From Eledone cirrhosa (lineage: Eukaryota): DNA of 64,000 nt. The notes beneath the pieces are model-generated. The model was not told the origin of the DNA. It saw only the letters and a program-made list of their open reading frames with translations, and made no database searches. The stretch is from contig OZ024740.1 in the NCBI GenBank assembly GCA_964016885.1, forward strand, positions 219,170,001 to 219,234,000. Direction: 5' to 3'. Made by a program: the position numbers and the translations under genes. Positions 14,681-64,000 of this stretch are shown here, one piece after another. Every line of letters starts with the position of its first letter. Position 1 is the first letter of the stretch.

Positions 14681-14878
14681 AGGGCGGTGAATTGGCAGTA
14701 TCGGTAGAGGGTCGGACGCCATGCTTTGCAGCACAGTTACGTCCCTTTACGGACTGAGTTCAAATCCCGCCGAGGTTAACTTTGCCTTTCATCCTTATGG
14801 GGTCGATAAAATAAAGTACCAGTAATACACTGGGATAATTGCTGGCCTTGTGCCAAAAGTAGAAACAATTATTATTAT
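14681..14878 (+). mobile_element. SINE with Meta-like domain, full length
   Basis: Head 'gggcggtgaattggcagtatcggtag', B box, 'gcctttcatccttatggggtcgataaaa', (ATT)n tail. Confidence 0.8.
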
Positions 14879-21955: not shown

Positions 21956-21983
21956 TATATATATATTATTATTATGTGGAGCT

Positions 21984-22057
21984 GTCTCTGTGGCGCAATT
22001 GGTTAGCGTGTTCGGCTGTTAACCGAAAGGTTGGTGGTTTGAGCCCACCCAGGGACG
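21984..22057 (+). tRNA. tRNA-Asn(GTT), probably a retropseudogene
   Basis: Matches the canonical metazoan tRNA-Asn GTCTCTGTGGCGCAA...CTGTTAA...CCCAGGGACG except three C>T changes at CpG sites, including the T-loop GTTCG>GTTTG. Confidence 0.85.
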
Positions 22058-22121
22058 AGGCTCCAGAATTTTATGTTTTCTGGCCTTGTGCCAAAAATAG
22101 AAACATTTATTATGTGGCGCT

Positions 22122-22584
22122 AAACTCCACCAGTTGCAGACTGTGCATTAACATGTGATATCTCTCTCCACAAAGTTTGCTCATCAGCAGCAGAGTTGAA
22201 AGAGCCAAGATCAAGTCCAGTCCATAAGTTGTCATATCAAGCCATTCTCTTGGCTGCTGGCCTCTGCTTCTCTTACCAGCCAACCTTCCTTCCAGACATA
22301 ACCTACTCACACCACGAGTTCATCTTTTTATATGGCCATATAGTTTGAGTACTCTTGACTTGATGTAATTAGTCTAAGTTTGGTAATGTTGAGCAGCTCA
22401 TTGATACAGATACAGTCACTGAGCCGCTTGTGAGTCATAAGTCTCATGATGTGGTTCTGGAATGTAGAGAGCTTCTGAAGTGACCTTGTCATCGAATTAA
22501 CACAGTCAAGACCATACAACACAACTGGTAGGATGTAAACATCACAGATCTTAGCCTTCAATTGATAGGAAACTCGTTTTGATG

Positions 22585-23711: not shown

Positions 23712-26269
23712 ATGCTTCAAGTGAACTATAACTTCCTCCTTTCCTTACGCCTGAGCCAGGCCCAGTTCACAACTGTAAAGAAACTCTTCCAGCTATCTGA
23801 AAAGCGCGCCAAAGCCGGCTGCCAAATAAACTTCCTAAAACGATGCCTGAATAACAACGTCATCCCCAAAACTATCAAAAACTTGATACCAGGCCTCAAA
23901 CGATCACTTAGCTACATACAAAAATTCTGTCTAAGAAAACTCATACAACACCTACACCGCATGCTACAACAACACATACGGACTATTTCCAGCCTTGTAC
24001 CACAACTCGCTGAAACCCCAGAACCTCTGTCCAGAGTTATCTCCGCCGCTATAGACAGGTCATACCACCATCGCCGAGACTACGAGAAAATACGACTAAC
24101 GCAAAAATTTCTCAAACTCAGCACGGCTAACCGTCTTAACAACATCCCAACTCTAAGCACCAACAGAGGCGAACAATAGGGTACCAACACCGAACCTAGC
24201 GGCGCCCCGACCAACAACACACCTGACGCAAAACACCTCGTCACAGACTTGACAGGATCCCTCTCCCAAGAGGAATTAGACCTCCTCAGCCTGGGTCCCA
24301 AGTTCATATTGAAACAGAGACTGGACGACAAATTATGGCTCGACATAGAAAGGAATTTCTGTCGGGCTGCCTACCAACTAAAATAGATATCGACTCTCGG
24401 CAACAACACCACGGAATCTAACAAACCCAGATTCCCGATATACCAACTGGATCGCCCACTCTGTCCACCGCCTGCCAACCACGAGCTTGAAGAAAAACTC
24501 TCGAGGCTAAACATTCCGTATTTAACATCTTACAGAAACAGAAGAAGATAGCCCCAAACCTTTCCAGGACACAACAACTCACCCTGAAGAACCTACGGAA
24601 TAGGGAACTTATATACTTACCATCCGACAAAGGTAAAGAGTTTTGCATCATCTCTCAAGCCACGTACAACAACCTAGCCTTTGAACACCTAAGCGACAAT
24701 GAACTAGATACAGAGATCCCGGACATGACTGCAGCCCAGATCAAAAAACAGACCAACTCCATCTGGTTCGACATCTGTAGGAGAAGACAACTCCCAAATA
24801 AAGTTAAGCTCAACTACACCACTAGAAATAGCAGACTGCCCACTTTCTACCACCTCATCAAGACCTACAAGAATAGTACTAAGACGCAAATAAGACCCAT
24901 CGTCTCTAGCATAGAAGGACCCCTATACAAAATTTCCTGGCTCCTCTCCCAGGTCCTCAAGCCTCTACTCTCCACCTTTCCCGGGCATGTCAGTAGCTCC
25001 GACGAAGTCATACGTAGACTACACCAACTCCAGCCAGAACAACTTAAATTAAATAGATACGCCTTTAGCCTCGACGTTGTCTCCCTCTACACTACAGTCT
25101 CCGCTCATCCAGCTGTCGATTTATTGACGGACTGCGTGGTCGCAGAGGACATCCACTGCTATGGCCTCCATCCGACGGACATACACCAGCTTTTGTCCTT
25201 CACAGTGGACAACACTTACTTCACCTTCCACCACCACACATACAGACAGACAACAGGATTACCCATGGGATCCAGCCTATCGGGCCTGCTGGCCTTCACC
25301 TATATGAACCAGCTAGAATTCCGAGCCCTCAACACCTGCCATTCCCATATCTTCTTCACCCGATATGTAGATGACATACTCATCCTTACATCATCCCGTG
25401 AGGAGGCGGATAAAATATACACAACATTCTCCAGCATGGACGCCAGTTTAAAGTTCAGCATGGAACACCCCGATGACCGCGGATCCCTATCCCTACTGGA
25501 CTTCCAACTCAGGGTAACAGAGGAAGGCAACATCCACACCTGCTTCTATAAAAAAGCCGCCAGCAGAGACCTGTTCGTACATTTCAGATCGGCCCTCCCA
25601 GCCGGCGCTAAGTTCGGATACATAAGGAATGAACTAACACATATCCGGAACAAATGCACCGGCACTAGAGACCGAGACACACACACCACATATTTCCTGG
25701 AAGCACTCAAACTGAACGGATACACGACATCCACCACAAACCGTGCCAGAAAGAACAGAGGACACCACACCCGAGGCACTAACACTTGCTTCCTGAAGCT
25801 CCCACACTTCAGTGACGAAACAACAACAGCCACCCGCAGAGCTATCAGACGAGAGGGACTAGATATCCAACTGGCCCACTTAGGACCTTCTCTACGCGGA
25901 CAGCTAACCAAAAGACACTCCACCAGACATAACAACCGCAGGCTAGCCAGCTGCCCCATCAACGACACAGACCTATGCCACCAGGCTTACGTCGTATACA
26001 GACTAGAGTGCGACAAATGCAGCAACTTCTACGTAGGTAGCACTACCAGACCACTCCACATAAGAATAAAAGAACACCTCAATACTAACACTTCCTCATT
26101 TAAGAAACACCTAGTGAAATGCAAAAACACTGACAAAACCATAACAGTTAGAATAGAAACTAAGGAAAGAAACCTTGGCAATCTTAGAATTAAGGAAGCA
26201 CTAATTATAGACAAAAGACAACCACCAATCAATAATAGACTAGAACTCAACACCCAATTTATAACTTGA
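23712..26269 (+). pseudogene. Penelope polyprotein (RT + GIY-YIG endonuclease), 5' part disrupted; 24725-26269 open
   Basis: LPSDKG, IRPIVS, SLDVVSLYT, GLPMGS, RYVDD and VVYRLEC..C..FYVGSTTR.L..RIKEH motifs; stops at ~24179, ~24386 and ~24707. Confidence 0.9.
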
Positions 26270-29471: not shown

Positions 29472-32400
29472 CGGTAAGTGTAGGTATGGATGAGTGGTTA
29501 TGGTAGTTTAAGGTATGGCTGTGTGGTTATGGTAGTTTAAAGTATGGCTGTGTGGTTATGATAGTTTAAAGTATGGCTGTGTGGTTATGGTAGTTTACAG
29601 TATGGCTGTGTGGGTATGGTAGTTTAAAGTATGGCTGTGTGGTTATGGTAGTTTAAAGTATGGCTGTGTGGTTATGGTAGTTTAAGGTATGGCTGTGGGG
29701 TTATGGTAGTTTAAAGTATGGCTGTGTGGTTATGGTAGTTTAATGTATTGCTGTGTGGTTATGGTAGTTTAAAGTATGGCTGTGTGGTTATGGTAGTTTA
29801 AGGTATGGCTGTGTGGTTATGGTAGTTTAAGGTATGGCTGTGTGGTTATGGTAGATTAAAGTATGGCTGTGTGGTTATGGTAGTTTAAAGTATGGCTGTG
29901 TGGTTATGGTAGTTTAAAGTATGGCTGTGTGGTTATGGTAGTTTAAGGTATGGCTGTGTGGTTATGGTAGTTTAAAGTATGGCTGTGTGGTTATGGTAGT
30001 TTAAGGTATGACTGTGGGGTTATGGTAGTTTAAAGTATGGCTGTGTGGTTATGGTAGTTTAAGGTATTGCTGTGTGGTTATGGTAGTTTAAGGTATGGCT
30101 GTGTGGTTATGGTAGTTTAAAGTATGGCTGTGTGGTTATGGTAGATTAAAGTATGGCTGTGTGGTTATGGTAGTTTAAGGTATGGCTGTGTGGTTATGGT
30201 AGTTTAAGGTATGGCTGTGTGGTTATGGTAGTTTAAGGTATGGCTGTGTGGTTATGGTAGTTTAAAGTATGGCTGTGTGGTTATGGTAGATTAAAGTATG
30301 GCTGTGTGGTTATGGTAGTTTAAGGTATGGCTGTGTGGTTATGGTAGTTTAAGGTATGGCTGTGTGGTTACGGTAGTTTAAGGTATGGCTGTGTGGTTAT
30401 GGTAGTTTAAAGTATGGCTCTGTAGTTATGGTAGTTTAAGGTATGGTTGTGTGGTTATGGTAGTTTAAGGTATGGCTGTGTGGTTAAGGTAGGTGTAGGT
30501 ATGGCTGTGTGGTTATGGTAGTTTAATGTATGGCTGTGTGGTTATGGTAGTTTAAAGTATGGCTGTGTGGTTATGGTAGTTTAAGGTATTGCTGTATGGT
30601 TATGGTAGTTTAAAGTATGGCTGTGTGGTTATGGTAGTTTAAAGTATGGCTGAGTGGTTATGGTAGTTAAAATATGGCTGTGTGGTTATGGTAGTTTAAA
30701 GTATGGCTGTGTGGTTATGGTAGTTTAAAGTATGGCTGTGTGGTTATGGTAGTTTAAAGTATGGCTGTGTGGTTATGGCGGTTTAAAGTATGGCTGTGAG
30801 GTTATGGTAGTTTAAGATATGGTTTTGTGGTTATGGTAGTTTAAAGTATGGCTGTGTGGTTATGGTAGTTTAAAGTATGGCTGTGTGGTTATGGTAGTTT
30901 AAGGTATGGCTGTGTGGTTATGGTAGTTTAAGGTATGGTTGTGTGGGTATGGTAGTTTAAAGTATGGCTGTGTGGTTATGGCAGTTTAAAGTATGGCTGT
31001 GTGGTTATGGTAGTTTAAAGTATGGCTGTGTGGGTATGGTAGTTTAAGATATGGCTTTGTGGTTATGGTAGTTTAAAGTATGGCTGTGTGGTAATGGTAG
31101 TTTAAAGTATGGCTGTGTGGTTATGGCAGTTTAAAGTATGGCTGTGTGGTTATGGTAGTTTAAAGTATGGATGTGTGGTTATGGTAGTTTAAAGTATGGC
31201 TCTGTGGTTATGGTAGTTTAAAGTATGGCTGTGTGGTTATGGAAGTTTAAGGTATGGCTGTGTGGTTATGGTAGTTTAAAGTATGGCTGTGTGGTTATGG
31301 TAGTTTAAGGTATGGCTGTGTGGTTATGGTAGTTTAAGGTATGGCTGTGTGGTTATAGTAGTTTAAGATATGGCTGTGTGGTTATGGTAGTTTAAGGTAT
31401 GTCTGTGTGGTTATGGTAGTTTAAGGTATGTCTGTGTGGTTATAGTAGTTTAAGGTATGGCTGTGTGGTTATGGTAGTTTAAAGTATGGCTGTGTGGTTA
31501 TGGTAGTTTAAAGTATGGCTGTGTGGTTATGGTAGTTTAAGGTATGGCTGTGTGGTTATGGTAGTTTAAGGTATGGCTGTGTGGTTATAGTAGTTTAAAG
31601 TATGGCTGTGTGGTTATAGTACTTTAAGGTATGGCTGTGTGGTTATGGTAGTTTAAAGTATGGCTGTGTGGTTATGGTAGTTTAAGGTATGGCTGTGTGG
31701 TTATGGTAGTTTAAAGTATGGCTGTGTGGTTATGGTAGTTTAAGGTATGGCTGTGTGGTTATGGTAGTTTAAAGTATGGCTGTGTGGTTATGGTAGTTTA
31801 AGGTATGACTGTGTGGTTATGGTAGTTTAAGGTATGGCTGTGTGGTTATGGTAGTTTAAAGTATGGCTGTGTGGTTATGGTAGTTTAAGGTATGGCTGTG
31901 TGGTTATGGTAGTTTAACGTATGGCTTTGTGGTTTTGGTAGTTGAAAGTATGGATGTGTGGTTATGGTAGTTTAAAGTATGGCTCTGTGGTTATGGTAGT
32001 TTAAAGTATGGCTGTGTGGTTATGATAGTTTAAGGTATGGCTGTGTGGTTATGGTAGTTTAAGGTATGGCTGTATGGTTATGGTAGTTTAAAGTATGGCT
32101 GTGTGGTTATGGTAGTTTAAAGTATGGCTGTGTGGTTATAGTAGTTTAAAGTATGGCTGTGTGGTTATGGTAGTTTAAGGTATGGATGTGTGGTTATGGT
32201 AGTTTAAAGTATGGCTCTGTGGTTATGGTAGTTTAAAGTATGGCTGTGTGGTTATGGTAGTTTAAAGTATGGCTGTGTGGTTATGGTAGTTTAAAGTATG
32301 GCTGTGTGGTTATGGTAGTTTAAAGAATGGCTGTGTGGTTATGGTAGTTTAAGGTATGTCTTTGTGGTTATGGTAGTTTAAAGTATGGATGTGTGGTTAT

Positions 32401-35400
32401 GGTAGTTTAAAGTATGGCTCTGTGATTATGGTAGTTTAAGGTATGGCTGTGTGGTTATGGTAGTTTAAAGTATGGCTGTGTGGTTATGGTAGTTTAAGGT
32501 ATTGCTGTGTGGTTATGGTAGTTTAAATTATCGCTCTGTAGTTATGGTAGTTTAAGGTATGGCTGTGGAGTTATGGTAGTTTAAAGTATGGCTGTGTGGT
32601 TATGGCAGTTTAAAGTATGGCTGTGTGGTTATGGTAGTTTAAGGTATGGCTGTGTGATTATGGTAGTTTAAAGTATGGCTGTGTGGTTATGGTAGTTTAA
32701 GGTATGGCTGTGTGATTATGGTAGTTTAAAGTATGGCTGTGTGGTTATGGTAGTTTAAGGTATGGCTGTGTGGTTATGATAGTTTAAAGTATGGCTCTGT
32801 AGTTATGGTAGTTTAAGGTATGGTTGTGTGGTTATGGTTGTTTAAGGTATGGCTGTGTGGTTATGGTAGGTGTAGGTATGGCTGGTGTGGTTATGGTAGT
32901 TTAATGTATGGCTGTGTGGTTATGGTAGTTTAAAGTATGGCTGTGTGGTTATGGTAGTTTAAGGTATGGCTGTATGGTTATGGTAGTTTAAAGTACGGCT
33001 GTGTGGTGATGCTAGTTTAAAGTATGGCTGTGTGGTTATGGTAGTTTAAAGTATGGCTGTGTGGTTATGTTAGTTTAAAGTATGGCTGTGTGGTTATGGT
33101 AGTTTAAAGTATGGCTGTGTGGTTATGGCAGTTTAAAGTATGGCTGTGTGGTTATGGTAGTTTAAGTTATGGCTTTGTGGTTTTGGTAGTTTAAAGTATG
33201 GATGTGTGGTTATGGTAGTTTAAAGTATGGCTCTGTGGTTATGGTAGTTTAAGGTATGGCTGTGTGGTTATGGTAGTTTAAAGTATGGCTGTGTGGTTAT
33301 GGTAGTTTAAATATGGCTCTGTTTTTATGGTAGTTTAAAGTATGGCTGTGTGGTTATGGTAGTTTAAGGTATGGCTGTGTGGTTATGATACTTTAAAGTA
33401 TGGCTGTGTAGTTATGGTAGTTTAAAGTATGGCTGTGTTGTATGGTAGTTTAAAGTATGGCTGTGTGGTTATGGTAGTTTAAAGTATGGCTGTGTGGTTA
33501 TGGTAGTTTAAAGTATGGCTGTGTGGTTATGGCGGTTTAAAGTATGGCTGTGAGGTTATGGTAGTTTAAGATTTGGTTTTGTGGTTATGGTAGTTTAAAG
33601 TATGGCTGTGTGGTTATGGTAGTTTAAAGTATGGCTGTGTGGTTATGGTAGTTTAAGGTATGGCTGTGTGGTTATGGTAGTTTAAGGTATGGTTGTGTGG
33701 GTATGGTAGTTTAAAGTATGGCTGTGTGGTTATGGCAGTTTAAAGTATGGCTGTGTGGTTATGGTAGTTTAAAGTATGGCTGTGTGGGTATGGTAGTTTA
33801 AGATATGGCTTTGTGGTTATGGTAGTTTAAAGTATGGCTGTGTGGTAATGGTAGTTTAAAGTATGGCTGTGTGGTTATGGCAGTTTAAAGTATGGCTGTG
33901 TGGTTATGGTAGTTTAAAGTATGGATGTGTGGTTATGGTAGTTTAAAGTATGGCTCTGTGGTTATGGTAGTTTAAAGTATGGCTGTGTGGTTATGGAAGT
34001 TTAAGGTATGGCTGTGTGGTTATGGTAGTTTAAAGTATGGCTGTGTGGTTATGGTAGTTTAAGGTATGGCTGTGTGGTTATGGTAGTTTAAGGTATGGCT
34101 GTGTGGTTATAGTAGTTTAAGATATGGCTGTGTGGTTATGGTAGTTTAAGGTATGTCTGTGTGGTTATGGTAGTTTAAGGTATGTCTGTGTGGTTATAGT
34201 AGTTTAAGGTATGGCTGTGTGGTTATGGTAGTTTAAAGTATGGCTGTGTGGTTATGGTAGTTTAAGGTATGGCTGTGTGGTTATGGTAGTTTAAAGTATG
34301 GCTGTGTGGTTATGGTAGTTTAAGGTATGGCTGTGTGGTTATGGTAGTTTAAAGTATGGCTGTGTGGTTATAGTACTTTAAGGTATGGCTGTGTGGTTAT
34401 GGTAGTTTAAAGTATGGCTGTGTGGTTATGGTAGTTTAAGGTATGGCTGTGTGGTTATGGTAGTTTAAGGTATGGCTGTGTGGTTATGGTAGTTTAAAGT
34501 ATGGCTGTGTGGTTATGGTAGTTTAAGGTATGGCTGTGTGGTTATGGTAGTTTAACGTATGGCTTTGTGGTTTTGGTAGTTGAAAGTATGGATGTGTGGT
34601 TATGGTAGTTTAAAGTATGGCTCTGTGGTTATGGTAGTTTAAAGTATGGCTGTGTGGTTATGATAGTTTAAGGTATGGCTGTGTGGTTATGGTAGTTTAA
34701 GGTATGGCTGTATGGTTATGGTAGTTTAAAGTATGGCTGTGTGGTTATGGTAGTTTAAAGTATGGCTGTGTGGTTATAGTAGTTTAAAGTATGGCTGTGT
34801 GGTTATGGTAGTTTAAGGTATGGATGTGTGGTTATGGTAGTTTAAAGTATGGCTCTGTGGTTATGGTAGTTTAAAGTATGGCTGTGTGGTTATGGTAGTT
34901 TAAAGTATGGCTGTGTGGTTATGGTAGTTTAAAGTATGGCTGTGTGGTTATGGTAGTTTAAAGAATGGCTGTGTGGTTATGGTAGTTTAAGGTATGTCTT
35001 TGTGGTTATGGTAGTTTAAAGTATGGATGTGTGGTTATGGTAGTTTAAAGTATGGCTCTGTGATTATGGTAGTTTAAGGTATGGCTGTGTGGTTATGGTA
35101 GTTTAAAGTATGGCTGTGTGGTTATGGTAGTTTAAGGTATTGCTGTGTGGTTATGGTAGTTTAAATTATCGCTCTGTGGTTATGGTAGTTTAAGGTATGG
35201 CTGTGGAGTTATGGTAGTTTAAAGTATGGCTGTGTGGTTATGGCAGTTTAAAGTATGGCTGTGTGGTTATGGTAGTTTAAGGTATGGCTGTGTGATTATG
35301 GTAGTTTAAAGTATGGCTGTGTGGTTATGGTAGTTTAAGGTATGGCTGTGTGATTATGGTAGTTTAAAGTATGGCTGTGTGGTTATGGTAGTTTAAGGTA

Positions 35401-38400
35401 TGGCTGTGTGGTTATGATAGTTTAAAGTATGGCTCTGTAGTTATGGTAGTTTAAGGTATGGTTGTGTGGTTATGGTTGTTTAAGGTATGGCTGTGTGGTT
35501 ATGGTAGGTGTAGGTATGGATGGTGTGGTTATGGTAGTTTAATGTATGGCTGTGTGGTTATGGTAGTTTAAAGTATGGCTGTGTGGTTATGGTAGTTTAA
35601 GGTATGGCTGTATGGTTATGGTAGTTTAAAGTACGGCTGTGTGGTGATGCTAGTTTAAAGTATGGCTGTGTGGTTATGGTAGTTTAAAGTATGGCTGTGT
35701 GGTTATGGTAGTTTAAAGTATGGCTGTGTGGTTATGTTAGTTTAAAGTATGGCTGTGTGGTTATGGTAGTTTAAAGTATGGCTGTGTGGTTATGGCAGTT
35801 TAAAGTATGGCTGTGTGGTTATGGTAGTTTAAAGTATGGCTGTGTGGTTATGTTAGTTTAAAGTATGGCTGTGTGGTTATGGTAGTTTAAAGTATGGCTG
35901 TGTGGTTATGGCAGTTTAAAGTATGGCTGTGTGGTTATGGTAGTTTAAGTTATGGCTTTGTGGTTTTGGTAGTTTAAAGTATGGATGTGTGGTTATGGTA
36001 GTTTAAAGTATGGCTCTGTGGTTATGGTAGTTTAAGGTATGGCTGTGTGGTTATGGTAGTTTAAAGTATGGCTGTGTGGTTATGGTAGTTTAAATATGGC
36101 TCTGTTTTTATGGTAGTTTAAAGTATGGCTGTGTGGTTATGGTAGTTTAAGGTATGGCTGTGTGGTTATGATACTTTAAAGTATGGCTGTGTAGTTATGG
36201 TAGTTTAAAGTATGGCTGTGTTGTATGGTAGTTTAAAGTATGGCTGTGTGGTTATAGTAGTTTAAAGTATGGCTGTGTGGTTATGGTAGTTTAAAGTATG
36301 GCTGCGTGGTTATGGGAGTTTAAGGTATGGCTGTGTGGTTATGGGAGTTTAAGGTATGGCTGTGGAGTTATGCTAGTTTAAAGTATGTCTGTGTGGTTAT
36401 GGTAGTTTAAGGTATGGCTGTGTGGTTATGATAGTTTAAAGTATGGCTCTGTAGTTATGGTAGTTTAAAGTATGGTTGTGTGGTTATGGTAGTTTAAGGT
36501 ATGGCTGTGTGGTGAAGGTAGGTATAGGTATGGCTGTGTGGTTATGGTAGTTTAAGGTATGGCTGTGTGGTTATGGTAGTTTAAGGTATGGCTGTGTGGT
36601 TATGGTAGTTTAAAGTATGGCTGTGAGGTTATGGTAGTTTAAAGTATGGCTGTGTGGTTATGGTAGTTTTAAAGTATGGCTGTGTGGTTATGGTAGTTTA
36701 AAGTATGGCTGTGTGGTTATGGTAGTTTAAAGTATGGCTGTGCGGTTATGGTCGTTTAAAGTATGGCTGTGTGGTTATGGTAGTTTAAGGTATGGCTGTG
36801 TGGTTATGGTAGTTTAAGGTATGGCTGTGTGGTTATGGTAGTTTAAGGTATGGCTGTGTGGTTATGGTAGTTTAAAGTATGGCTGTGTGGTTATGGTAGT
36901 TTAAGGTATGGCTGTGTGGTTATGGTAGTTTAAAGTATGGCTGTGTGGTTATGGTAGTTTAAAGTATGGCTGTGTGGTTATGGGAGTTTAAGGTATGGCT
37001 GTGTGGTTATGGTAGTTTAAGGTATGGCTGTGTGGTTATGGTAGTTTAAAGTAGGGCTGTGTGGTTATGGTAGTTTAAGGTATGGCTGTGTGGTTATGGT
37101 AGTTTAAGGTATGGCTGTGTGGTTATGGTAGTTTAAAGTATGGCTGTGTGGTTATGGTAGTTTAAGGTATGGCTGTGTGGTTATGGTAGTTTAAAGTATG
37201 GCTGTGTGGTTATGGTAGTTTAAAGTATGGCTGTGTGGTTATGGGAGTTTAAGGTATGGCTGTGTGGTTATGGTAGTTTAAGGTATGGCTGTGTGGTTAT
37301 GGTAGTTTAAGGTATGGCTGTGTGGTTATGGTAGTTTAAGGTATGGCTGTGTGGTTATGGTAGTTTAAAGTATGGCTGTGTGGTTATGGTAGTTTAAGGT
37401 ATGGCTGTGTGGTTATGGTAGTTTAAGGTATGGCTGTGTGGTTATGGTAGTTTAAGGTATGGCTGTGTGGTTATAGTAGTTTAAAGTATGGCTGTGTGGT
37501 TATGGTAGTTTAAAGTATGGCTGTGTGGTTATGGTAGTTTAAGGTATGGCTGTGTGGTTATGGTAGTTTAAGGTATGGCTGTGTGGTTATGGTAGTTTAA
37601 AGTATGGCTGTGTGGTTATGGAAGTTTAAAGTATGGCTGTGTGGTTATGGTACTTTAAGGTATGGCTGTGTGGTTATGGTAGTTTAAAGTTTGGCTGTGT
37701 GGTTATGGTAGTTTAAGGTATGGCTGTGTGGTTGAGGTAGGTGTAGGTATGGCTGTGTGGTTATGGTAGTTTAAGGTATGGCTGTGTGGTTGAGGTAGGT
37801 GTAGGTATGGCTATGTGGTTGAGGTAGGTGTAGTTATGACTGTGTGGTTAAGGTAGGTGTGGCTGTGTGATTAAGGTAGGTGTAGGTATGGCTGTGTGGT
37901 TAAGGTAGGTGTAGGTATGGCTGTGTGGTTCAGGTAGATGTAGGTATGGCTCTGTGGTTAAGGTAGGGTAGGTGTGGTTATCTGGTTAAGGTAGGTGTAG
38001 GTGTAGCTGTGTGGTTGAGGTAGGTGTAGGTATGGCTGTGTGGTTGAGGTAGGTGTGTGTATGGCTGTGTGGTTGAGGTAGGTGTAGGTATGACTGTGTG
38101 GTTGAGGTAGGTGTAGGTATGGTTATGTGGTTGAGGTAGGTGTAGGTCTGGCTGTGTGGTTGAGGTAGGTGTAGGTATGGTTGTGTGGTTAAGGTAGGTA
38201 TAGGTATGGCTGTGTGGTTGAGGTAGGTGTGTACATGGCTGTGGTTGAGGTAGGTGTAGGTATGGTTGTGTGGTTAAGGTAGGTATAGGTATGGCTGTGT
38301 GGTTGAGGTAGGTGTGTACATGGCTGTGGTTGAGGTAGGTTTGTACATGGCTGTGTGGTTAACATAAGTTTGTATGGTTGTGTGGTTAAGATATGTGTGT

Positions 38401-42343: not shown

Positions 42344-44706
42344 TCATCATCATCATCATCATCATCACCGTTTTACGTCCGTTCTTCCACGCTAGCATGG
42401 GTTGGACGGGTTGTCCTGTTGTGTGCAGTGTCTGGTCGGCTGACCATGCCTTGCTCATACAGGAACTGATCTGGCTTGATTTCTACAGCTGGATGCCCTT
42501 CCTAACACCAACCTCATTTACAGTGAGTGCTGGGTGCTTTTTCGTGGCGCCTACACGTCCACTTTACAGTGTGGGCTGGGTGCTTTTTTGCCGTGGCACC
42601 TCCACGACCACCTTGCGGTGGGGGGTGTGGGGGCATATTGTTTATATGCTTCAGCATGTACCCATGGGAGGTCGGGTACTCTGTATTACTGCGTGATGCC
42701 AGAAGTCACGGTCGTGTGTCATTGTCATTGAGAGGTGTAATTGGGTAAGGTCGGCTTTTATCACCTCATCCCAGGTCATCTTGGGTCTCCCCACTCCGCG
42801 GTTTCCATCAACTTCTAGTGCTCTGCACCTTTTTATTCAGCTGTCATCCTTCATACGCATCACATGTCCATACCAGCGCAACCGCCTCTCCTGCACACAG
42901 CATTTGATTCCTCTTATGCTCAGTCTCTCTCTCAATTCATTTATGCTTTGTCGTTCACGTATATTACTGTTACACATCCATCGGAGCATGCAGGCTTCGT
43001 TTCTCTCTAATCTACGTAAGTCTTCCACCTTCAGCGCCCAGGTTTCACTACCATGCAACATCGCTGTTCGGATACACGCATCATACAGTCTACCTTTCAT
43101 TCTGAGGGAGAAGCCTTTTGCAGCTAGCAGTGGTAGTAGTTCCCTAAACTTCTTCCATCCCGTTCTTACCCTAGTTATTGTACTTTCTGAACATCCACCT
43201 CCGTTGCTAATTCGGTCACCTAGGTAGCAGAAGCTGTCTACTGTTTCTACAGGGCCCTTAGTGGTACTTGTTTCCTGTGGCTGTTTGCTGCTTGCTGTTT
43301 CAGCACAGCTGCTGCATGTGAATCCTAAATTCTTAATTAAGCTTCCTGAGATCCTGCTACATCTCTTGTGTACCCATTGTTTGCATTTGGGGCAGAGAAT
43401 GGAGTTCCTACCTACACCTTTCCTACATACTGAGCAAGGCCATTTCCCTGAGGAGATCTGGATTCTGTTTTCTCGTCTACTTACAAGGACCTTAGTCTTT
43501 GTCATGTTGACTTTGAGACCCTTTCTTTCTAGTCCCTGCTTCCAGGTTTGGAATTTATTCTCTAGTTCTACCGTAGATTCAGCTATGAGTGCGAGGTCAT
43601 CAGCATACAGGAGTTCCCATGGGCATCCCGTCTTAAACTCCTCCGTTATTGCCTGCAGGACTATGATGAACAGAAGAGGGCTAAGAACAGAACCCTGGTG
43701 GACCCCAACCTGTACGCTAAATTCCTCGCTATACTCATTGCTAATCCTAACTTTGCTGACTGCTCCCCTATACATGGCTTGTACCGCTTTCACAAGCCAT
43801 TCATCTACTCCTAGTTTTCTAAGAGCCCACCAGATTACAACACGTGGAACTCTGTCAAAGGCTTTCTCAAGGTCGACAAATGCCAAGTAGAGTGGCTTAC
43901 TTTTAGCTAGGTACTTTTCCTGTAATTGCCTCACAAGGAAGAGGGCATCAGTGGTGCCTCTTCCTGGTACAAACCCAAATTGCATCTCGTCTATTTTCAC
44001 CCGGTCCCTAATCAGCTGTGTTATAACTCTTTCTGTTACTTTCATGACCTGGTCCATCAACTTTATACCTCTATAGTTTCCTCTATCTAGTGCATCGCCT
44101 TTACCTTTGTAGCAGTTGACAATGATGCTACTGCACCAATCTTTTGGTATGGCCCCTTCTAGTATTACCTGGTTAACGATACGTGTGGTTATAGTGTGAC
44201 CTACAGACCCAGATGCCTTCAGCATCTCGGCAGCTATACCCGATGGACCGGTTGCCTTCCCCATCTTCATATCTTTGATTGCCTTACTTACTACGCTGCT
44301 GCTGACTTGTACTGCTGGTCCCTCTATAGGGTCTACTTGGGGTAGGGTCTCTTCTTCCCATGCATTCTCCTCATTTAGTAATCTATCATAATGACTCTTC
44401 CATGCATCTTTCTTCTCAGCACTTGTGAGGGCAAGCTCACCTTTATCATTCCGGATACACTTCTCTCCAATGACATCACAACTATCTCTGACACACTGCC
44501 TCGCAATCTTGAATACCTCCTGTTTCTGGTCCCCACATTGTAAAACATGCTTGAATTTTCTATCCTCTGCTTCCCTCCTAGTTAAGTATACTTGTCGCCT
44601 AGCTTCCCTCTTGGTCTCTATGTAATGTACCCTGCTCCCCCCGTTCTTCCATTCTTTCCATGCCTGTCTCTTGGCCTTAACTGCTTCATCTACCTTATTG
44701 TTCCAA
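42344..44706 (-). mobile_element. 5'-truncated RTE LINE (RT ORF 42837-44270)
   Basis: NYRGIKL, FVDLEKAFD, GVHQGS and LLYADD motifs; (GAT)n tail. Confidence 0.95.
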
Positions 44707-44742
44707 TATATATGATATATATATGATATATATATATATATA

Positions 44743-45019
44743 TCATCATCATCATCATTTCATTTTACGTCCGCTTTTCCCTGCTTGCAAGGGTGGGACG
44801 GGAACTGTCTCTGGCTTGATTTCTACAGCTGGATGCCCTTCCTAACACCAACCTCATTTACAGTGAGTGCTGGGTGCTTTTTTGCCGTGGCATCTCCACG
44901 ACCACTTTGCAGTGGAATGATATGGACCCCAGTCCCTATCATCTCATTTCTACAGTTGAGTAAACTGGAGCAATGTGAAATAAAGTGTCTTGCTCAAGGA
45001 AACAACACATCACCCGGTT
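44743..45019 (-). mobile_element. 5'-truncated tRNA/CORE-like SINE
   Basis: Nearly identical to 11713-11990. Confidence 0.85.
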
Positions 45020-55086: not shown

Positions 55087-55316
55087 ATTAAATTCAACTC
55101 TTCTTATTAATAATTGCCTTGTTTCTTTCTAGGGACTATGTTGAAAAATAAACCTCATTTGGTAATTCCATGAGAGTATCTGGGTCAGCCTATGATTTTT
55201 TCAGTTTATGAACTTTTCAGCCAACTTTCGTATATACAGGGTATCCCCCAAAAATGTATACACACTTCAACAGCATTCTAATAAATATTGCCTGTACAGG
55301 TAATCAGAGTGTGTAT

Positions 55317-57677
55317 AAGGTAGATGAAGCAGTCAAGGCCAAGAGACAGGCATGGAAAGAATGGAAGAACGGGGGGAGCAGGGTACATTACATAGAGACC
55401 AAGAGGGAAGCTAGGCGACAAGTATACTTAGCTAGGAGGGAAGCAGAGGATAGAAAATTCAAGCATGTTTTACAACGTGAGGACCAGAAACAGGAGGTAT
55501 TCAAGATTGCGAGGCAGTGTGTCAGAGATAGTTGTGATGTCATTGGAGAGAAGTGTATCCGGAATGATAAAGGTGAGCTTGCCCTCACAAGTGCTGAGAA
55601 GAAAGATGCATGGAAGAGTCATTATGATAGATTACTAAATGAGGAGAATGCATGGGAAGAAGAGACCCTACCCCACGTAGACCCTATAGAGGGACCAGCA
55701 GTACAAGTCAGCGGCAGCGTAGTAAGTAAGGCAATCAGAGATATGAAGATAGGGAAGGCAACCGGTCCATCGGGTATAGCTGCCGAGATGCTGAAGGCAT
55801 CTGGGTCTGTAGGTCACACTATAACCACACGTATCGTTAACCAGGTAATACTAGAGGGGGCCATACCAAAAGATTGGTGCAGTAGCATCATTGTCAACTG
55901 CTACAAAGGTAAAGGCGATGCACTAGATAGAGGAAACTATAGAGGTATAAAGTTGATGGACCAGGTCATGAAAGTAACAGAAAGAGTTATAGCACAGCTG
56001 ATTAGGGACCGGGTGAATATAGACGAGATGCAATTTGGGTTTGTTCCAGGGAAAGGCACCACTGATGCGCTCTTCCTTGTGAGGCAATTACAGGAAAAGT
56101 ACCTAGCTAAAAGTAAGCCACTCTACTTGGCATTTGTCGACCTTGAGAAAGCCTTTGACAGAGTTCCACGTGCAGTAATCTGGTGGGCTCTTAGAAAACT
56201 AGGAGTAGATGAATGGCTTGTGAAAGCGGTACAAGCCATGTATAGGGGAGCAGTCAGCAAAGTTAGGATTGGCAATGAGTATAGCGAGGAATTTAGCGTA
56301 CAGGTTGGGGTCCACCAGGGCTCTGTTCTTAGCCCTCTCCTGTTCATCATAGTCCTGCAGGCAATAACGGAGGAGTTTAAGACCGGATGCCCATGGGAAC
56401 TCCTGTATGCTGATGACCTCGCACTCATAGCTGAATCTATGGTAGAACTAGAGAATAAATTCCAAACCTGGAAGCAGGGACTAGAGAGAAAGGGCCTCAA
56501 AGTCAACATGACAAAGACTAAGGTCCTTATAAGTAGACGAGAAAACAGAACCCAGATCCCCTCAGGGAAATGGCCTTGCTCAGTATGTAGGAAAGGTGTA
56601 GGTAGGAACTCCATTCTTTGCCCCAAATGCAAACAATGGGTACACAAGAGATGTAGCGGGATCTCAGGAAGCTTAATTAAGAATGTAGGATTCACATGCA
56701 GCAGCTGTGCTGAAACAGCAAGCAAACAGCCACAGGAAACAAGTACCACCAATCTCTGGGAGGGCCCTGTAGAAACAGTAGACAGCTTCTGCTACCTAGG
56801 TGACCGAATTAGCAACGGAGGTGGGTGCTCAGAAAGTACAATAACTAGGGTAAGAACGGGATGGAAGAAGTTTAGGGAACTACTACCACTGCTAGCTGCA
56901 AAAGGCTTCTACCTCAGAATGAAAGGCAGACTGTATGATGCGTGTATCCGAACAGCGATGTTGCATGGTAGTGAGACCTGGGCGCTGAAGGTGGAAGACT
57001 TACGTAGATTAGAGAGAAACGAAGCCTGCATGCTCCGATGGATGTGTAACAGTAATATACGTGAACGACAAAGCATAAATGAATTGAGAGAGAGACTGAG
57101 CATAAGAGGAATCAAATGCTGCGTGCAGGAGAGGCGGTTACGCTGGTATGGACATGTGATGCGTATGAAGGATGACAGCTGCATAAAAAGGTGCAGAGCA
57201 CTAGAAGTTGATGGAAACCGCGGAGTGGGGAGACCCAAGATGACTTGGGATGAGGTGATAAAAGCCGACCTTACCCAACTACACCTCTCAAAGTCAATGA
57301 CACACGACCGTGACTTCTGGCGTCACGCAGTAATACAGGGTACCCGACCTCCCATGGGTACATGCTGAAGCATATAAACAATATGCCCCCCCCCCCCCCC
57401 CACCGCAAGGTGGTCGCGGAGGTGCCACGGCAAAAAAGCACCCAGCCCACACTGTAAAGTGGACGTGTAGGCGCCACGAAAAAGCACCCAGCACTCACTG
57501 TAAATGAGGTTGGTGTTAGGAAGGGCATCCAGCTGTAGAAATCAAGCCAGATCAGTTCCTGTATGAGCAAGGCATGGTCAGCCGACCAGACACTGCCCAC
57601 AACAGGACAACCCGTCTAACCCATGCTAGCGTGGAAGAACGGACGTAAAACGGTGATGATGATGATGATGATGATGA
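55317..57677 (+). mobile_element. 5'-truncated RTE LINE with uninterrupted RT ORF (55254-57368; start codon borrowed from the MITE)
   Basis: 704-aa ORF with RT motifs (YADD) and a Cys-rich insertion; (GAT)n tail. Confidence 0.95.
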
Positions 57678-59138
57678 TATATATATATATATATATATAT
57701 ATAATAGAATAATCGAGTATCGGAAAATCAGCTCACGGATTAACGATAAACAAATCCGACATGAGTGGCAGAGGGCTCAATAATTCAGATAAATCAGAGC
57801 TATAACTATCGTTAAAATACCAACACACAAAGATTATGCCTAAAATCACCCATGCAGCCGTAAAAGAACGACCAGGAAGATTCGGGTCACTCAAATAAAA
57901 TATCAATAAATCAATAATTTATATGAATGTAAAAAACTTACCCGGACCCACTAGAAAGGTGGTAAATCTAGCTTCTTGGGTTTCTGCAATTCCTTAATCC
58001 GTTCTCTATCAGCCCACATAAAAATATATAAGACTTCTAGCGAACGAATGGACCGGAAAAACTTTATCAACGGGTTACATCCAACAAATAAAGAAGTTAC
58101 CTTTAGCTAGAACGCACATGGAGTCCAGCAAGGGAGATAACCTCTATATTCTCGAAAAATTATCGGTAATGTGGAAAACACATATCGAATCAGAGTGCTT
58201 GATAGACATGTTAAAATAAACAGGAGCTATTCATCATTCAATAGAATCGACAAAAAAATGAACAATAAAATTAACTGGTCAATAGCTATGTCTAGAGCTA
58301 AATATAATAGAATAATCGAGTATCGGAAAATCAGCTCACGAATTAACGATAAACAAATCCGACATGAGTGGCAGAGGGCTCAATAATTCAGATAAATCAG
58401 AGCTATAACTATCGTTAAAATACCAACACACAAAGATTATGCCTATGGGGCGCTTACCAGCATAACTCTGATTTTTGCGGTTCGTTTCGCTTTTTATACC
58501 CACCAAAATGCGATTCTCGCTGAATTTATATTTGTATTAATCTCCCGAGTTTTACAATTAATCTGTTAATAATTCTATTGACAGATTAATTGCATAAGTT
58601 TATTTTTAAAACTAACCGGTTGAGTGCTTATTCGATTTGTGCTATTTATGCAATTTTTTGCATGATATACACATACTGAATACATTTACACAAATCTGGA
58701 GTTTTGCTTTTACAAAGCTCTACATCATTCACAAACTTGGTACAGAGAAAAATACCTGTTGATAATGTGATATTCATTGTTCGATCATTATACCAAAAGC
58801 TTATAGTTTTAAGCAGACAGTATTATTGATTTAGGTGTCATAGAAACCCTGCATTTGGATTTTACCATCAATTCCAATGGGTCCAGGTCTGTTTTTATCA
58901 TTTATTTTGTTTGACCTGTTTAGCTTGATTTACTTTTTGGCTTAGATGGTTAATGCCTTCTTGACCACTTTTTCAGTTTGTATGTAGTTTTAACATATTG
59001 TTTAGCTCTGGTTTTTAACTATGGAGCGCTTACCAGCATAACTCTGATTTTTGTGGTTCGTTTCGCTTTTTCTACCCGACGAAATGCGCTTCTCGCTGAA
59101 TTTATATGGTCATAAAATGAAATGATGAAAATGAAATG

Positions 59139-60224: not shown

Positions 60225-63200
60225 ATTTAAACCTTAACCTCTGCTCCCTCCTATTCTTCACCCCCCTCTATATCATGCTGGTTCGCCCTCAATCCCTTCC
60301 TCTATCTCCAAATATAAAATAAATCCTTTGCAAGTACGAAACTCAGAAACCGCCAAACCCTATTCAGGCTAGGCTGCTCGCACGGTGAAATGTAATGTAC
60401 TAAATGCTATCGATTCATCTAACTGTATCATTTCGCCCAAAATCCAATCATTGCTTTTTCTATTCGATAATTCTATCGTATTTTTCAAAACAAATCTTGT
60501 ATTTTTTATGCTTGTTAAATTATGCCCAAAATATGAGGATCTTATTTAAACCTTAACCTTCTCGCTAACTACCTCATATCCCTCCCACCTGCCACCACGC
60601 ACCACCATAATTACGTGGGCCAATCATAAGTTAGTGGCCTATGCTATCACTGAAGACCTGGTTGCCTTTCAATATGATGGATGGACTACGGAATTCTGGA
60701 GAGTTTGAAAAGAAAATATCTGGACACTTAGTGACAATGCCAAAGATAAAGACAAATTCACCTCATGGACGAGAATGCAAGGACTCCTCCTCTTTGTTTC
60801 GGCCACGGATGGCTAACATAACCCCATCTCCCCCCTCCCCTGCGCCCCATCGTTCCCACCCTCCAAACGCAATCCAAAACTTCAGAGTTGGTACCATGAA
60901 TGTAGGCACCTTAAAAGGTCGCTCTAACAAGGTCGTAGAAATGCTTGAACGTAAGGAGGTCGATGTTTGCTGTATTCAAGAGACCAGGTGGAGGAGTGGG
61001 TCTGCTAGATTCATTGTGGGTAAAGAACGATGCTATAAGCTTTTCTGGGTGGAAAATGACAATGGGCTGGGTGGAGTAGGAATCATGGTAGCAGAAAAGT
61101 GGGCAGATAAGATAATAGACGTAGATAGAGTGAATGACAGAATAATTAAAATAAGACTTGTCCTCAATAGAACTACTCTGACAATAATATCTGCATATGC
61201 AGCACAATCTGGATTGCCTGGCGTTATAAAAGACGGATTCTATGAGACGTTAATGCTCACTACCTCCCAAATAACCGACAGTGACTACATAGTTATCGCT
61301 GGTGACCTAAATAGTCATGTTGGACAACATTGTTACGGCTATGACGGAATCCATGGAGGCTATGGGTTTGGTACTAGAAATGAGGAAGGCTCCAGAATCC
61401 TGGAATTTTGTGACGCAAATAACCTAATTATCTGTAACACTAACTTCAAAAAACAAGACAATCACTTGATCACCTATAGATCAGGGGAACACACCAGCCA
61501 GGTAGATTATATCCTTACCAGAAGACGTGACAGAGTGTCTGTTGTAAACACTAAGTCCCTCCCCCATGAAGAATTCACCTCCCAACATAGACTGATAATT
61601 AGCGACCTCATAGTCAGGACGAGACGTACTAGACAGCGGAAGAGGACTATCCTCAGGAGAAAAATATGGAAGTTAAAGGACCCCACAGCCAGTAATAAAT
61701 TTAAAATAATATTACTTGATGCTTTTGATAGTAAGGAAGAGCAATTAGAGTCGTACAATATAGAGGAACAGTGGGAATTCCTGAAAGCTAACCTGCTGAA
61801 GGCGACAGATGAAACCTGTGGCTGGAGCAGACCTATAGGCAGGAGGAGAGTAACTTAGTGGTGGAGGTGTCAATCAAGGCCAAAAAGCAAGCTTAGAAAG
61901 CATGGCGGGATGAGGGAAGTAGAGAAGACTATCAAGTGGCCAGGAGGGAAGCTAGGAGACAAGTGTACTTCGCAAGAAGGGAAGCAGAGGAAAAAAGTTC
62001 AAGCATGTTCTACAACGCGAGGACCAAAAACGTGAGGTGTTCAGGATTGCTACGCAATGTGTCAAGGAAAACCATGATATTGTCGGGGAGAAGTGTGTCC
62101 TTAATGATGATGGTATACTTGCCATCACTGACGCTGATAAGAAGGTAGCTTGGAAGTGTCACTATGAAAGGCTACTAAATGAGGAGAATAATTGGGAGAA
62201 AGACAGTCTCCCCCACATCGATCCAATAGAGGGACCAGCAGTGCAAGTGGAAGGTAGTATAATAAGTAAGGCGATCAAAGACATGAAGACGGGCAAGGTG
62301 GCTGGGCCTTCGGAAATAGTTGCTGAAATGCTGAAAGCATCTGGAACGGTGGGACACACTATGGTCACCCGGATAGTAAACCAAGTCATACAGAATTGGG
62401 TCATTCTGAAGGACTGGCGCAGCAGCATCATCATTAACTGCTACAAGGGTAAAGGAGATGCCCTAGATAGGAGAAACTATAGAGGCATTAAATTAATTGA
62501 CCAGGTCATGAAGGTCACAGAAAAAATAATAGCGCAACTAATCAGAGAGCGAATCGATCTAGACGAAATGCAGTTCGAGTTTGTGTCAGGTAAAAGTACA
62601 ACAGACGCTCTTTTCATTGTACGACAACAACAGGAGAAGTACCTAGCTAAAAGTAAACCCCTATACTTAGCTTTTGTTGACTTGGAGAAAGCCTTTGACA
62701 GAGTACCCCGCTCGATTATCTGGTGGGCCCTTAGAAAACTAGGTGTTGATGAATGGCTTGTGAGAGCTATACAAGCCATGTATAAAGAAACAGTCAGCAA
62801 GGTTAGAATTAACAACGAATAAAGTGAAGAGTTTAGCGTAAAAGTTGGTGTTCATCAGGGCTCCGTCCTTAGCCCCCTACTATCTATTATTGCCCTTCAG
62901 GCTATAACAGAGGAGTTCAAGACTGGCTGCCCATGGGAACTTCTATACGCAGATGATCTAACGCTCATAGCTAAATCAATGGCTGAACTAGAGAAGAAAT
63001 TCAAAACATGGAAGCATGGCCTAGAATCAAAAGGCCTTAAAATTAACGTGTCTAAGACTAAAGTTCTAGTTAGTAGGAAGGAAAATAGGGCACTGGTCCC
63101 ATCTGGGAAATGGCCATGCTCAGTGTGTAGGAAAGGAGTAGGCAGAAACTCCATTTTATGTCCCAAATGCAGAGTATGGGTGTATAAAAGATGTAGTGGG

Positions 63201-64000
63201 ATCACAGGTAAGCTAACTAAGAATATAGATTTTATATGTGGCCGGTGCTCAGGTGCAATAAGTAGCAGCAAGTGCCCACAGAATACTAGCTCATTCCATT
63301 GCACTGATGGATCTATAGAAATAGTGGTCACCTTCCGTTATCTGGGTGACAAAATCAGCAGTGGTGGAGGGTGCTCTGAAAGTACAGTAGCTAGAGTCAG
63401 AACGGGATGGAAGAAGTTCAGAGAGCTTATACCACTATTGGCCGCTAAAGGGTTCTCTTTAAAAATGAAAGGCAGGCTGTATGATGCCTGCATACGAACA
63501 GTAATGTTACATGGCAGTGAGACTTGGGCATTGTGTGCAGAAGATATACGCAGACTGGAGAGAAACGAAGCTTGCATGCTCCGTTGGATGTGTAATAGTA
63601 ATATACATGAACGGCAAAGCATAAATGAACTAATGGAGAAATTAGGAATAAGAGGAATCAGATGTTGTTTACTCGAGAGAAGACTACATTGGTATGGTCA
63701 CGTGATGTGCATGAAAGACGACAGCTGTATAAAAAATTGCAGGGCGATAAAAATAGACGGTAGCCACGGAGTAGGCAGACCCAGAAAAACCTGGGACGAC
63801 TTGATAAATTCCGACCTCACACACTTACACCTCTCCAAGACAATGTCACTGGACTGAGATCTTTGGCGCTACACAGTTATACAGAAGACCCGCCTTGCCT
63901 AAGTACAAAGCGAAACCTACAGTCAGTAGGCATCTCTAACAAAAATACACCCCCGCCCCATCCACACCGCCCCTTTCGATGTAAAGTTATGTTGGTACCA
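60225..64000 (+). mobile_element. Near full-length RTE LINE (AP endonuclease + RT), disrupted, running off the window end
   Basis: GTMNVGTL, CIQETRW, IAGDLN and SQVDYIL motifs, then RT motifs split by stops and frameshifts. Confidence 0.93.

Follow-up and report, generated by a model that had tools for sequence, protein, structure and literature searches.

A pre-tRNA-Asn/SINE chimera in the genome of Eledone cirrhosa and a class of related chimeric retrogenes

Structure of the locus and of its target site

Our analyses show that the window, that is, the whole stretch of 64,000 nucleotides of Eledone cirrhosa DNA studied here, carries a tRNA-Asn(GTT) sequence joined through its 3' trailer to the end of a SINE, the two parts being enclosed by one direct repeat located in the tail of an older LINE. 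The features concerned, with positions numbered from the first letter of the window, are as follows:

21968..21983, plus strand: left copy of the target-site duplication; its last four nucleotides (21980-21983, AGCT) also correspond to the source gene's 5' leader, as an A of the leader type followed by the GCT microhomology
21984..22057, plus strand: tRNA-Asn(GTT) body without CCA; three C-to-T changes relative to the source gene (L002), every one at a CpG of the source
22058..22079, plus strand: 3' trailer as far as the second T-run of the source gene; 20/22 identical, with one insertion and one substitution
22080..22105, plus strand: 3'-terminal 26 nt of a short Meta-like SINE family; begins 1 nt before a predicted 4-bp hairpin, TGGC-CTTGT-GCCA
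22106..22121, plus strand: right copy of the target-site duplication; it represents the original target, namely the host LINE's 3' end and tail
22107..22577, minus strand: host element, the decayed 3' end of a LINE encoding a reverse transcriptase (RVT_1 in the paralogue L199)
14683..14868, plus strand: full-length copy of the donor SINE family, used for comparison and not a proven donor
55212..57690, plus strand: LINE with reverse transcriptase and PHD finger (RT+PHD LINE), whose 3' UTR (57450-57562) matches the tail of a second SINE family

The tRNA body was detected by ARAGORN and scores 63.4 bits with Rfam. Directly 3' of it, the 22-nt trailer contains two T4 runs, after which the sequence passes into CTGGCCTTGTGCCAAAAATAGAAACA, the end of the SINE at 14683-14868, which has four matches in the window against 0.03 expected. 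This donor family is presumably Meta-like, MetaSINEs being characterised by a 66-bp Meta domain that follows a tRNA head; the repeats of the window resemble octopus SINEs. The hairpin predicted in the SINE tail is no more stable than shuffled sequences (z = -0.9 and -0.1) and thus provides no evidence of structure.

The direct repeat matches at 14 of 15 positions (TTATTATGTGGAGCT at 21969-21983 and TTATTATGTGGCGCT at 22107-22121), with a duplication score of 13, a value reached or exceeded by 2 of 870 mismatched flank pairs. The sequence-only reading of this DNA had proposed a pre-tRNA/SINE-tail chimera inside a 15-bp target-site duplication. This anatomy is indeed present, with the duplication enclosing both parts, but the length is probably 16 bp (21968-21983 and 22106-22121) because ordinary copies of the donor SINE mostly have duplications that start with ATTAT. 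In 51 such copies, full-length and without a T-loop motif upstream, duplications of at least 10 bp (median 15) were seen in 35, and 31 of these 35 start with ATTAT; lengths of 15-17 bp are the commonest (15/35), and 12 bp or less is seen in 5/35. Judging from these sequences, the insertion site in the window fits the apparent habit of the donor-SINE enzyme.

The right flank of the chimera is the 3' end of a multi-copy minus-strand LINE, presumably RTE-like, in the tail of which the chimera sits. The paralogous ends of this LINE serve as the empty sites sought to support a retroposed origin: 29/29 are without insert, and ARAGORN detects no tRNA in them. Base 22117 is A in 27/29 paralogues and G in both duplication copies of the window. 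This private base, present twice, implies that a base of the target was itself duplicated, as expected of a true target-site duplication. In public read data, 23 runs were listed, the best with 0.28 of the words; comparison of four runs with 22060-22580 gave only repeat-derived matches, swamped by repeat copies, with no piece spanning the locus and no empty allele of this very site.

Other elements of the window include LINE copies with long open frames at 55212-57368 (plus strand), 42837-44759 (minus strand) and 60635-63857 (plus strand), with Pfam domains for a reverse transcriptase and a PHD finger in the first and for an endonuclease in 60635-61858. An open frame of 592 amino acids at 24491-26269 (plus strand) presumably encodes a Penelope-type reverse transcriptase with a GIY-YIG endonuclease, as its motifs suggest. 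A 29-bp satellite with strong GC skew occupies 29484-38311 (305 copies, 92% matches).

Source gene and 5' end of the insert

We searched the 3.0-Gb genome of the same organism for the source of the insert and scored 40 of 318 candidates. The window was the sole full-length match among these 40; the next best, matching over tRNA and trailer, was L002 (G000:C25:14752710-14752804, minus strand), a gene on a different chromosome, C25, with 20/22 trailer positions identical. A source gene with the trailer claimed from the window sequence thus exists. L002 has no SINE 3' of its terminator, and its flanks are different and non-repetitive. Segmental duplication from L002 was considered and ruled out, the similarity beyond tRNA and trailer being a microsatellite alone. 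Together, the trailer, the CpG-type changes of the body, one of which falls in the T-loop/B box (22040), and a source gene with neither SINE nor shared flanks imply that the window carries a decayed RNA-derived copy. As its trailer extends to the second T-run of the source, the template RNA must have read through the first T4.

The 5' end of the insert admits more than one interpretation. It had been described as starting exactly at G1 of the tRNA; this is one possible reading, but the four nucleotides upstream of G1 match the source leader too. The leader of L002 ends in CAGCAGCT, and the left duplication copy has an A at the position where the two copies mismatch (21980). In the paralogous LINE ends, this base is C in 27/29, T in 2 and A in 0, while the source leader has A. 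The earlier proposal of a 5'-processed tRNA is therefore likely wrong for the acceptor in the window. The simplest reading would be that the leader was included in the cDNA and joined to the target via the GCT microhomology, a case that at the window locus consists of one diagnostic base and 3 nt of microhomology. In a comparison of eight chimeras whose 5' end is intact and whose source was picked by trailer, 26 contiguous upstream bases agreed with the source leaders, whereas 100,000 random draws yielded 3.2 on average and never more than 17; four of these cases, all Asp, have one array unit as their source, and the null consists of random genomic sequence rather than of other tRNA leaders. 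Among the eight, L022 has a mismatch at -1, with 4 of the last 5 leader bases matching.

The version first proposed, with a template switch onto a 5'-processed acceptor, a duplication of 15-16 bp and the A as a later point mutation, agrees with the commonest duplication length (15-17 bp) and with the other point changes of the insert. However, it requires a target that happened to terminate in the GCT of the leader and later acquired precisely the leader's A by mutation, and leaders are retained across the class described below. We give this version very little credence.

A class of fusions across the genome

The window chimera belongs to a set of 34 loci, corresponding to at least 33 events (L105 and L106 have common flanks and count as one), in which a tRNA and its trailer are joined at a T-run to SINE or LINE-tail sequence. 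They comprise 11 isotypes plus one Lys-like case. A pattern combining the T-loop with the SINE tail gave 58 matches, two of which are tRNAs: that of the window and that of L043, an independent Asn copy truncated at its 5' end, with SINE tail and another trailer. The bias towards Asn suggested by these two disappeared once other donors were used. The pattern of T-loop, T-run and SINE head retrieved 61 matches (0 for the reversed control), 51 of which were examined as loci and include 15 canonical tRNAs, 9 copies of an unannotated tRNA-like RNA and 4 odd tRNA-like sequences; the equivalent pattern with the head of the second SINE family retrieved 18, that is, 11 tRNAs, 4 tRNA-like RNAs and 3 others. 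Of the 28 tRNA-Asn matches outside arrays, 6 are fused to retroelement sequence, the degenerate L064 and L065 being left unassigned.

All 34 chimeras have a run of at least three T 0-6 nt upstream of the donor, none has a spacer starting with CCA, and 30/34 retain the donor head, although 26 of the loci came from patterns requiring a T-run and a SINE head and 8 from searches without the T-run requirement, so that T-run junctions and head-bearing donors are over-counted. An intron is present in both Leu-CAA chimeras, and two Phe chimeras have distinct source genes, L152 and L135. The search for mature CCA-ended tRNAs followed by either SINE head gave four matches, all of them within one minisatellite; no genuine fusion of a mature tRNA was found by this pattern, which copies stopping before the T-loop would escape.

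Duplications could be scored in 19 of 20 Meta-family tRNA cases. A duplication of the whole unit (score of at least 10, reached by 2.2% of the 870 mismatched flank pairs) is present in 9 of them and not in the other 10, several of which were broken by later SINE insertions. No duplication of the SINE alone occurs in these 19 cases, bar a self-overlap artefact at L043. The second-family chimeras lie mostly within (TA)n, where duplications cannot be scored. These results bear on a reading in two events, in which a SINE landed on its own at the terminator of a tRNA gene, whether real or duplicated, or read-through RNA from such a locus was retroposed. SINE-only duplications beside tRNA-like genes do exist (L075, score 14; L088, score 8), and T-rich targets are common. 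Nevertheless, the duplication in the window encloses both parts and carries the private mutation of the host LINE, and no SINE is found at the terminators of the examined source genes (L002, L003, L135, L152, C740:33541 and the Asp array). The two-event reading is largely refuted for the window locus, and we regard it as highly improbable. Secondary amplification found no support, the SINE parts of L220 and L222 having one common variant and 10/257 differences; neither this comparison nor the 40 candidates scored out of 318 revealed daughter copies of any chimera.

Among 42 SINE tails in 498 kb of loci that had not been chosen by SINE patterns, that of the window is the only tail-only one, while 26 belong to copies of nearly full length. 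No partner LINE of the Meta-like tail was found among 191 tails in the fetched loci. The 3' UTR of the RT+PHD LINE in the window and the tail of the second SINE family agree at 106/113 nt; for L028 the match is 72/73. From this similarity, the RT+PHD LINE at 55212..57690 is likely the partner of the second SINE family, and L028 may be a direct fusion of tRNA and LINE tail.

Several observations accompany this survey. An unannotated tRNA-like RNA family of ~95-110 nt, which ends in T-runs and bears motifs resembling the A and B boxes, has been captured 13 times in the same type of chimera (L079, L087, L092, L097, L100, L104, L108, L109, L111, L217, L221, L223 and L227); no Rfam family was found for it in the 4 of these 13 loci scanned. 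The SINE has often inserted into a pre-existing copy of itself, within the ATTAT tail, forming nested stacks (L022, L093, L105, L108, L113). Large tandem arrays were found for tRNA-Asn (G000 C4:117.36-117.71 Mb, 1.26-kb unit with an anticodon-stem variant), tRNA-Asp (G000 C3:277.24-277.42 Mb, 1.34-kb unit), intron-bearing Leu-CAA (G000 C740 and C1:325.6 Mb) and tRNA-Phe (G000 C6:85.45 Mb). L107 (735-825, minus strand) is a Lys(TTT)-like tRNA copy fused to a SINE, with ~18 nt inserted just after the anticodon, either an intron or a later insertion. The Phe chimera L124 (G000:C8:46819756-46819861, minus strand) ends at about tRNA position 59-60, as numbered by eye, beside m1A58, the usual block to reverse transcription in tRNA. 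Finally, in L234 (G000:C1:116038433), L180 and L136, dispersed tRNA copies pass from the trailer directly into (TA)n without SINE and are possibly pre-tRNA retrocopies devoid of donor.

Proposed mechanism, known relatives and meaning for the birth of SINEs

We propose that a single retrotransposition formed the window locus: having copied the SINE tail, the reverse transcriptase of a LINE would have jumped to a pre-tRNA that was still unprocessed, at its U-rich 3' end, a reading to which we assign a probability of roughly 0.7. The site, the duplication and its family-typical start indicate that the tail of the older LINE was nicked at ATTAT, where priming took place. Only 26 nt of SINE RNA were copied, as seen at the junction, perhaps owing to a broken RNA or to early release of the enzyme. 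The source gene and the T-run junction would then reflect a jump to the primary transcript of the C25 gene at its oligo-U end, with pairing between A overhangs and U as a likely aid. Copying would have continued through to the leader, with joining to the target by the GCT microhomology, as the leader-type A suggests, and CpG mutation subsequently decayed the insert. The same process likely produced the at least 33 events, involving two SINE families. Sequential template jumping is also the basis of OTTR, which uses an R2 enzyme (PMC12140624).

Alternatively, RNA ligation might have come first: the 3' end of the pre-tRNA would have been joined to a 5'-OH SINE fragment by an RtcB-like activity, and the fused RNA then retroposed, as for U6/L1. 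The junction at a U-tract resembles that of U6/L1, RtcB is the nuclear tRNA-splicing ligase (PMC6789731), and the window donor is a short fragment of a kind rare among ordinary copies, for which a 5'-OH is plausible. By contrast, nascent Pol III transcripts start with a triphosphate and end in U-OH. RtcB depends on a cyclic phosphate at one end and a 5'-OH at the other, and ligation dropped strongly with a 5' triphosphate (PMC6789731). Since 30/34 donors of the class, a proportion inflated by the search patterns, bear their head, RtcB ligation fits poorly, and we deem it unlikely, though plausible for the tail-only donor of the window.

Fusions of this general kind are known from other systems. 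U6 chimeras with L1, L2 and RTE-type LINEs, as well as with SINEs, have been described, the U6-SINE chimeras being attributed to non-L1 LINEs (Doucet et al. 2015, PMC4476161). Like the U6/LINE and U6/SINE chimeras (PMC4476161; Moldovan et al. 2019, PMC6789731), the loci reported here combine a Pol III RNA in sense orientation with a junction at a 3' U-tract and a single duplication, but their acceptors are primary tRNA transcripts of many isotypes, with leader, intron and trailer, and most of their donors retain the head, in contrast to the RtcB model, where the L1 part is 5'-truncated. Human tRNA/LINE-1 chimeras (Law and Burns, 10.1101/2025.02.02.635956; 21 loci) similarly arise in one insertion with duplication, although they mostly contain antisense tRNA halves formed by twin priming, whereas those studied here are in sense, often full-length and with trailer. 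The pre-tRNA 'tailless' retropseudogenes (Schmitz et al. 2004, via PMC4476161) share a pre-tRNA template for a LINE reverse transcriptase, which implies nuclear capture, but are 3'-truncated and without retroelement tail, while our chimeras reach the terminator and a fused tail. Addition of a head by template switch has been proposed for SINEs (PMC4494074, PMC5786205, PMC4824008, PMC4758252), with pre-tRNA polyadenylation as an alternative route (PMC3575423). In the tRNA-headed dimeric SINEs, Bov-tA and SINEU (PMC4494074, PMC5786205, PMC4824008), a small-RNA head likewise lies 5' of a SINE/LINE tail; these are, however, amplified families inferred after the fact, as opposed to single-copy events with identifiable sources and an internal terminator. 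Our literature search, to which subscription journals, including the original octopus SINE paper, were outside coverage, retrieved no report of leader-to-terminator pre-tRNA/SINE fusions as a class.

The window locus is real and, together with its class, is a variant of chimeric retrogenes: one duplication encloses both parts, the source gene is separate, and the parts have the same orientation and a direct junction. The three CpG-type changes and the insertion within a LINE tail speak against a functional tRNA gene. The idea that the locus resembles a step in SINE birth holds for its structure, a tRNA-derived head followed by the tail of a SINE family, but the chimera carries a terminator and has not multiplied. 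It has a single full-length match among the 40 candidates scored out of 318 (the trailer of L043 differs), and its sequence argues against Pol III reading from head to tail, with two T4 runs before the tail and the C-to-T change in the T-loop. A terminator between head and tail would block transcription of the chimera's own tail, which would make such chimeras dead-end proto-SINEs.

That SINEs originate by addition of a tRNA head to a mobile tail has mostly been deduced from ancient families after their amplification; here, single events and their source genes are readable. The class thereby makes testable whether reverse transcriptases jump or RNAs are ligated, which form of the RNA is captured (apparently the primary nuclear transcript and not the mature tRNA) and why such fusions rarely spread (the terminator travels along). 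One practical consequence is that tRNA predictions in this genome may be retrocopies even when they score highly, as the six fused tRNA-Asn matches illustrate. At a broader level, with even odds in our judgement, at least two LINE machineries would routinely finish a SINE and then jump, end to end, to Pol III transcripts that are nascent and carry a U tail, while rejecting mature tRNAs. Initial steps of SINE birth, each of them dated, would hence be preserved in the genome by the dozens to hundreds, recording the start and termination sites of germline Pol III transcripts and the unannotated tRNA-like RNA family, and the captured terminator would be the barrier that makes new SINE families rare.
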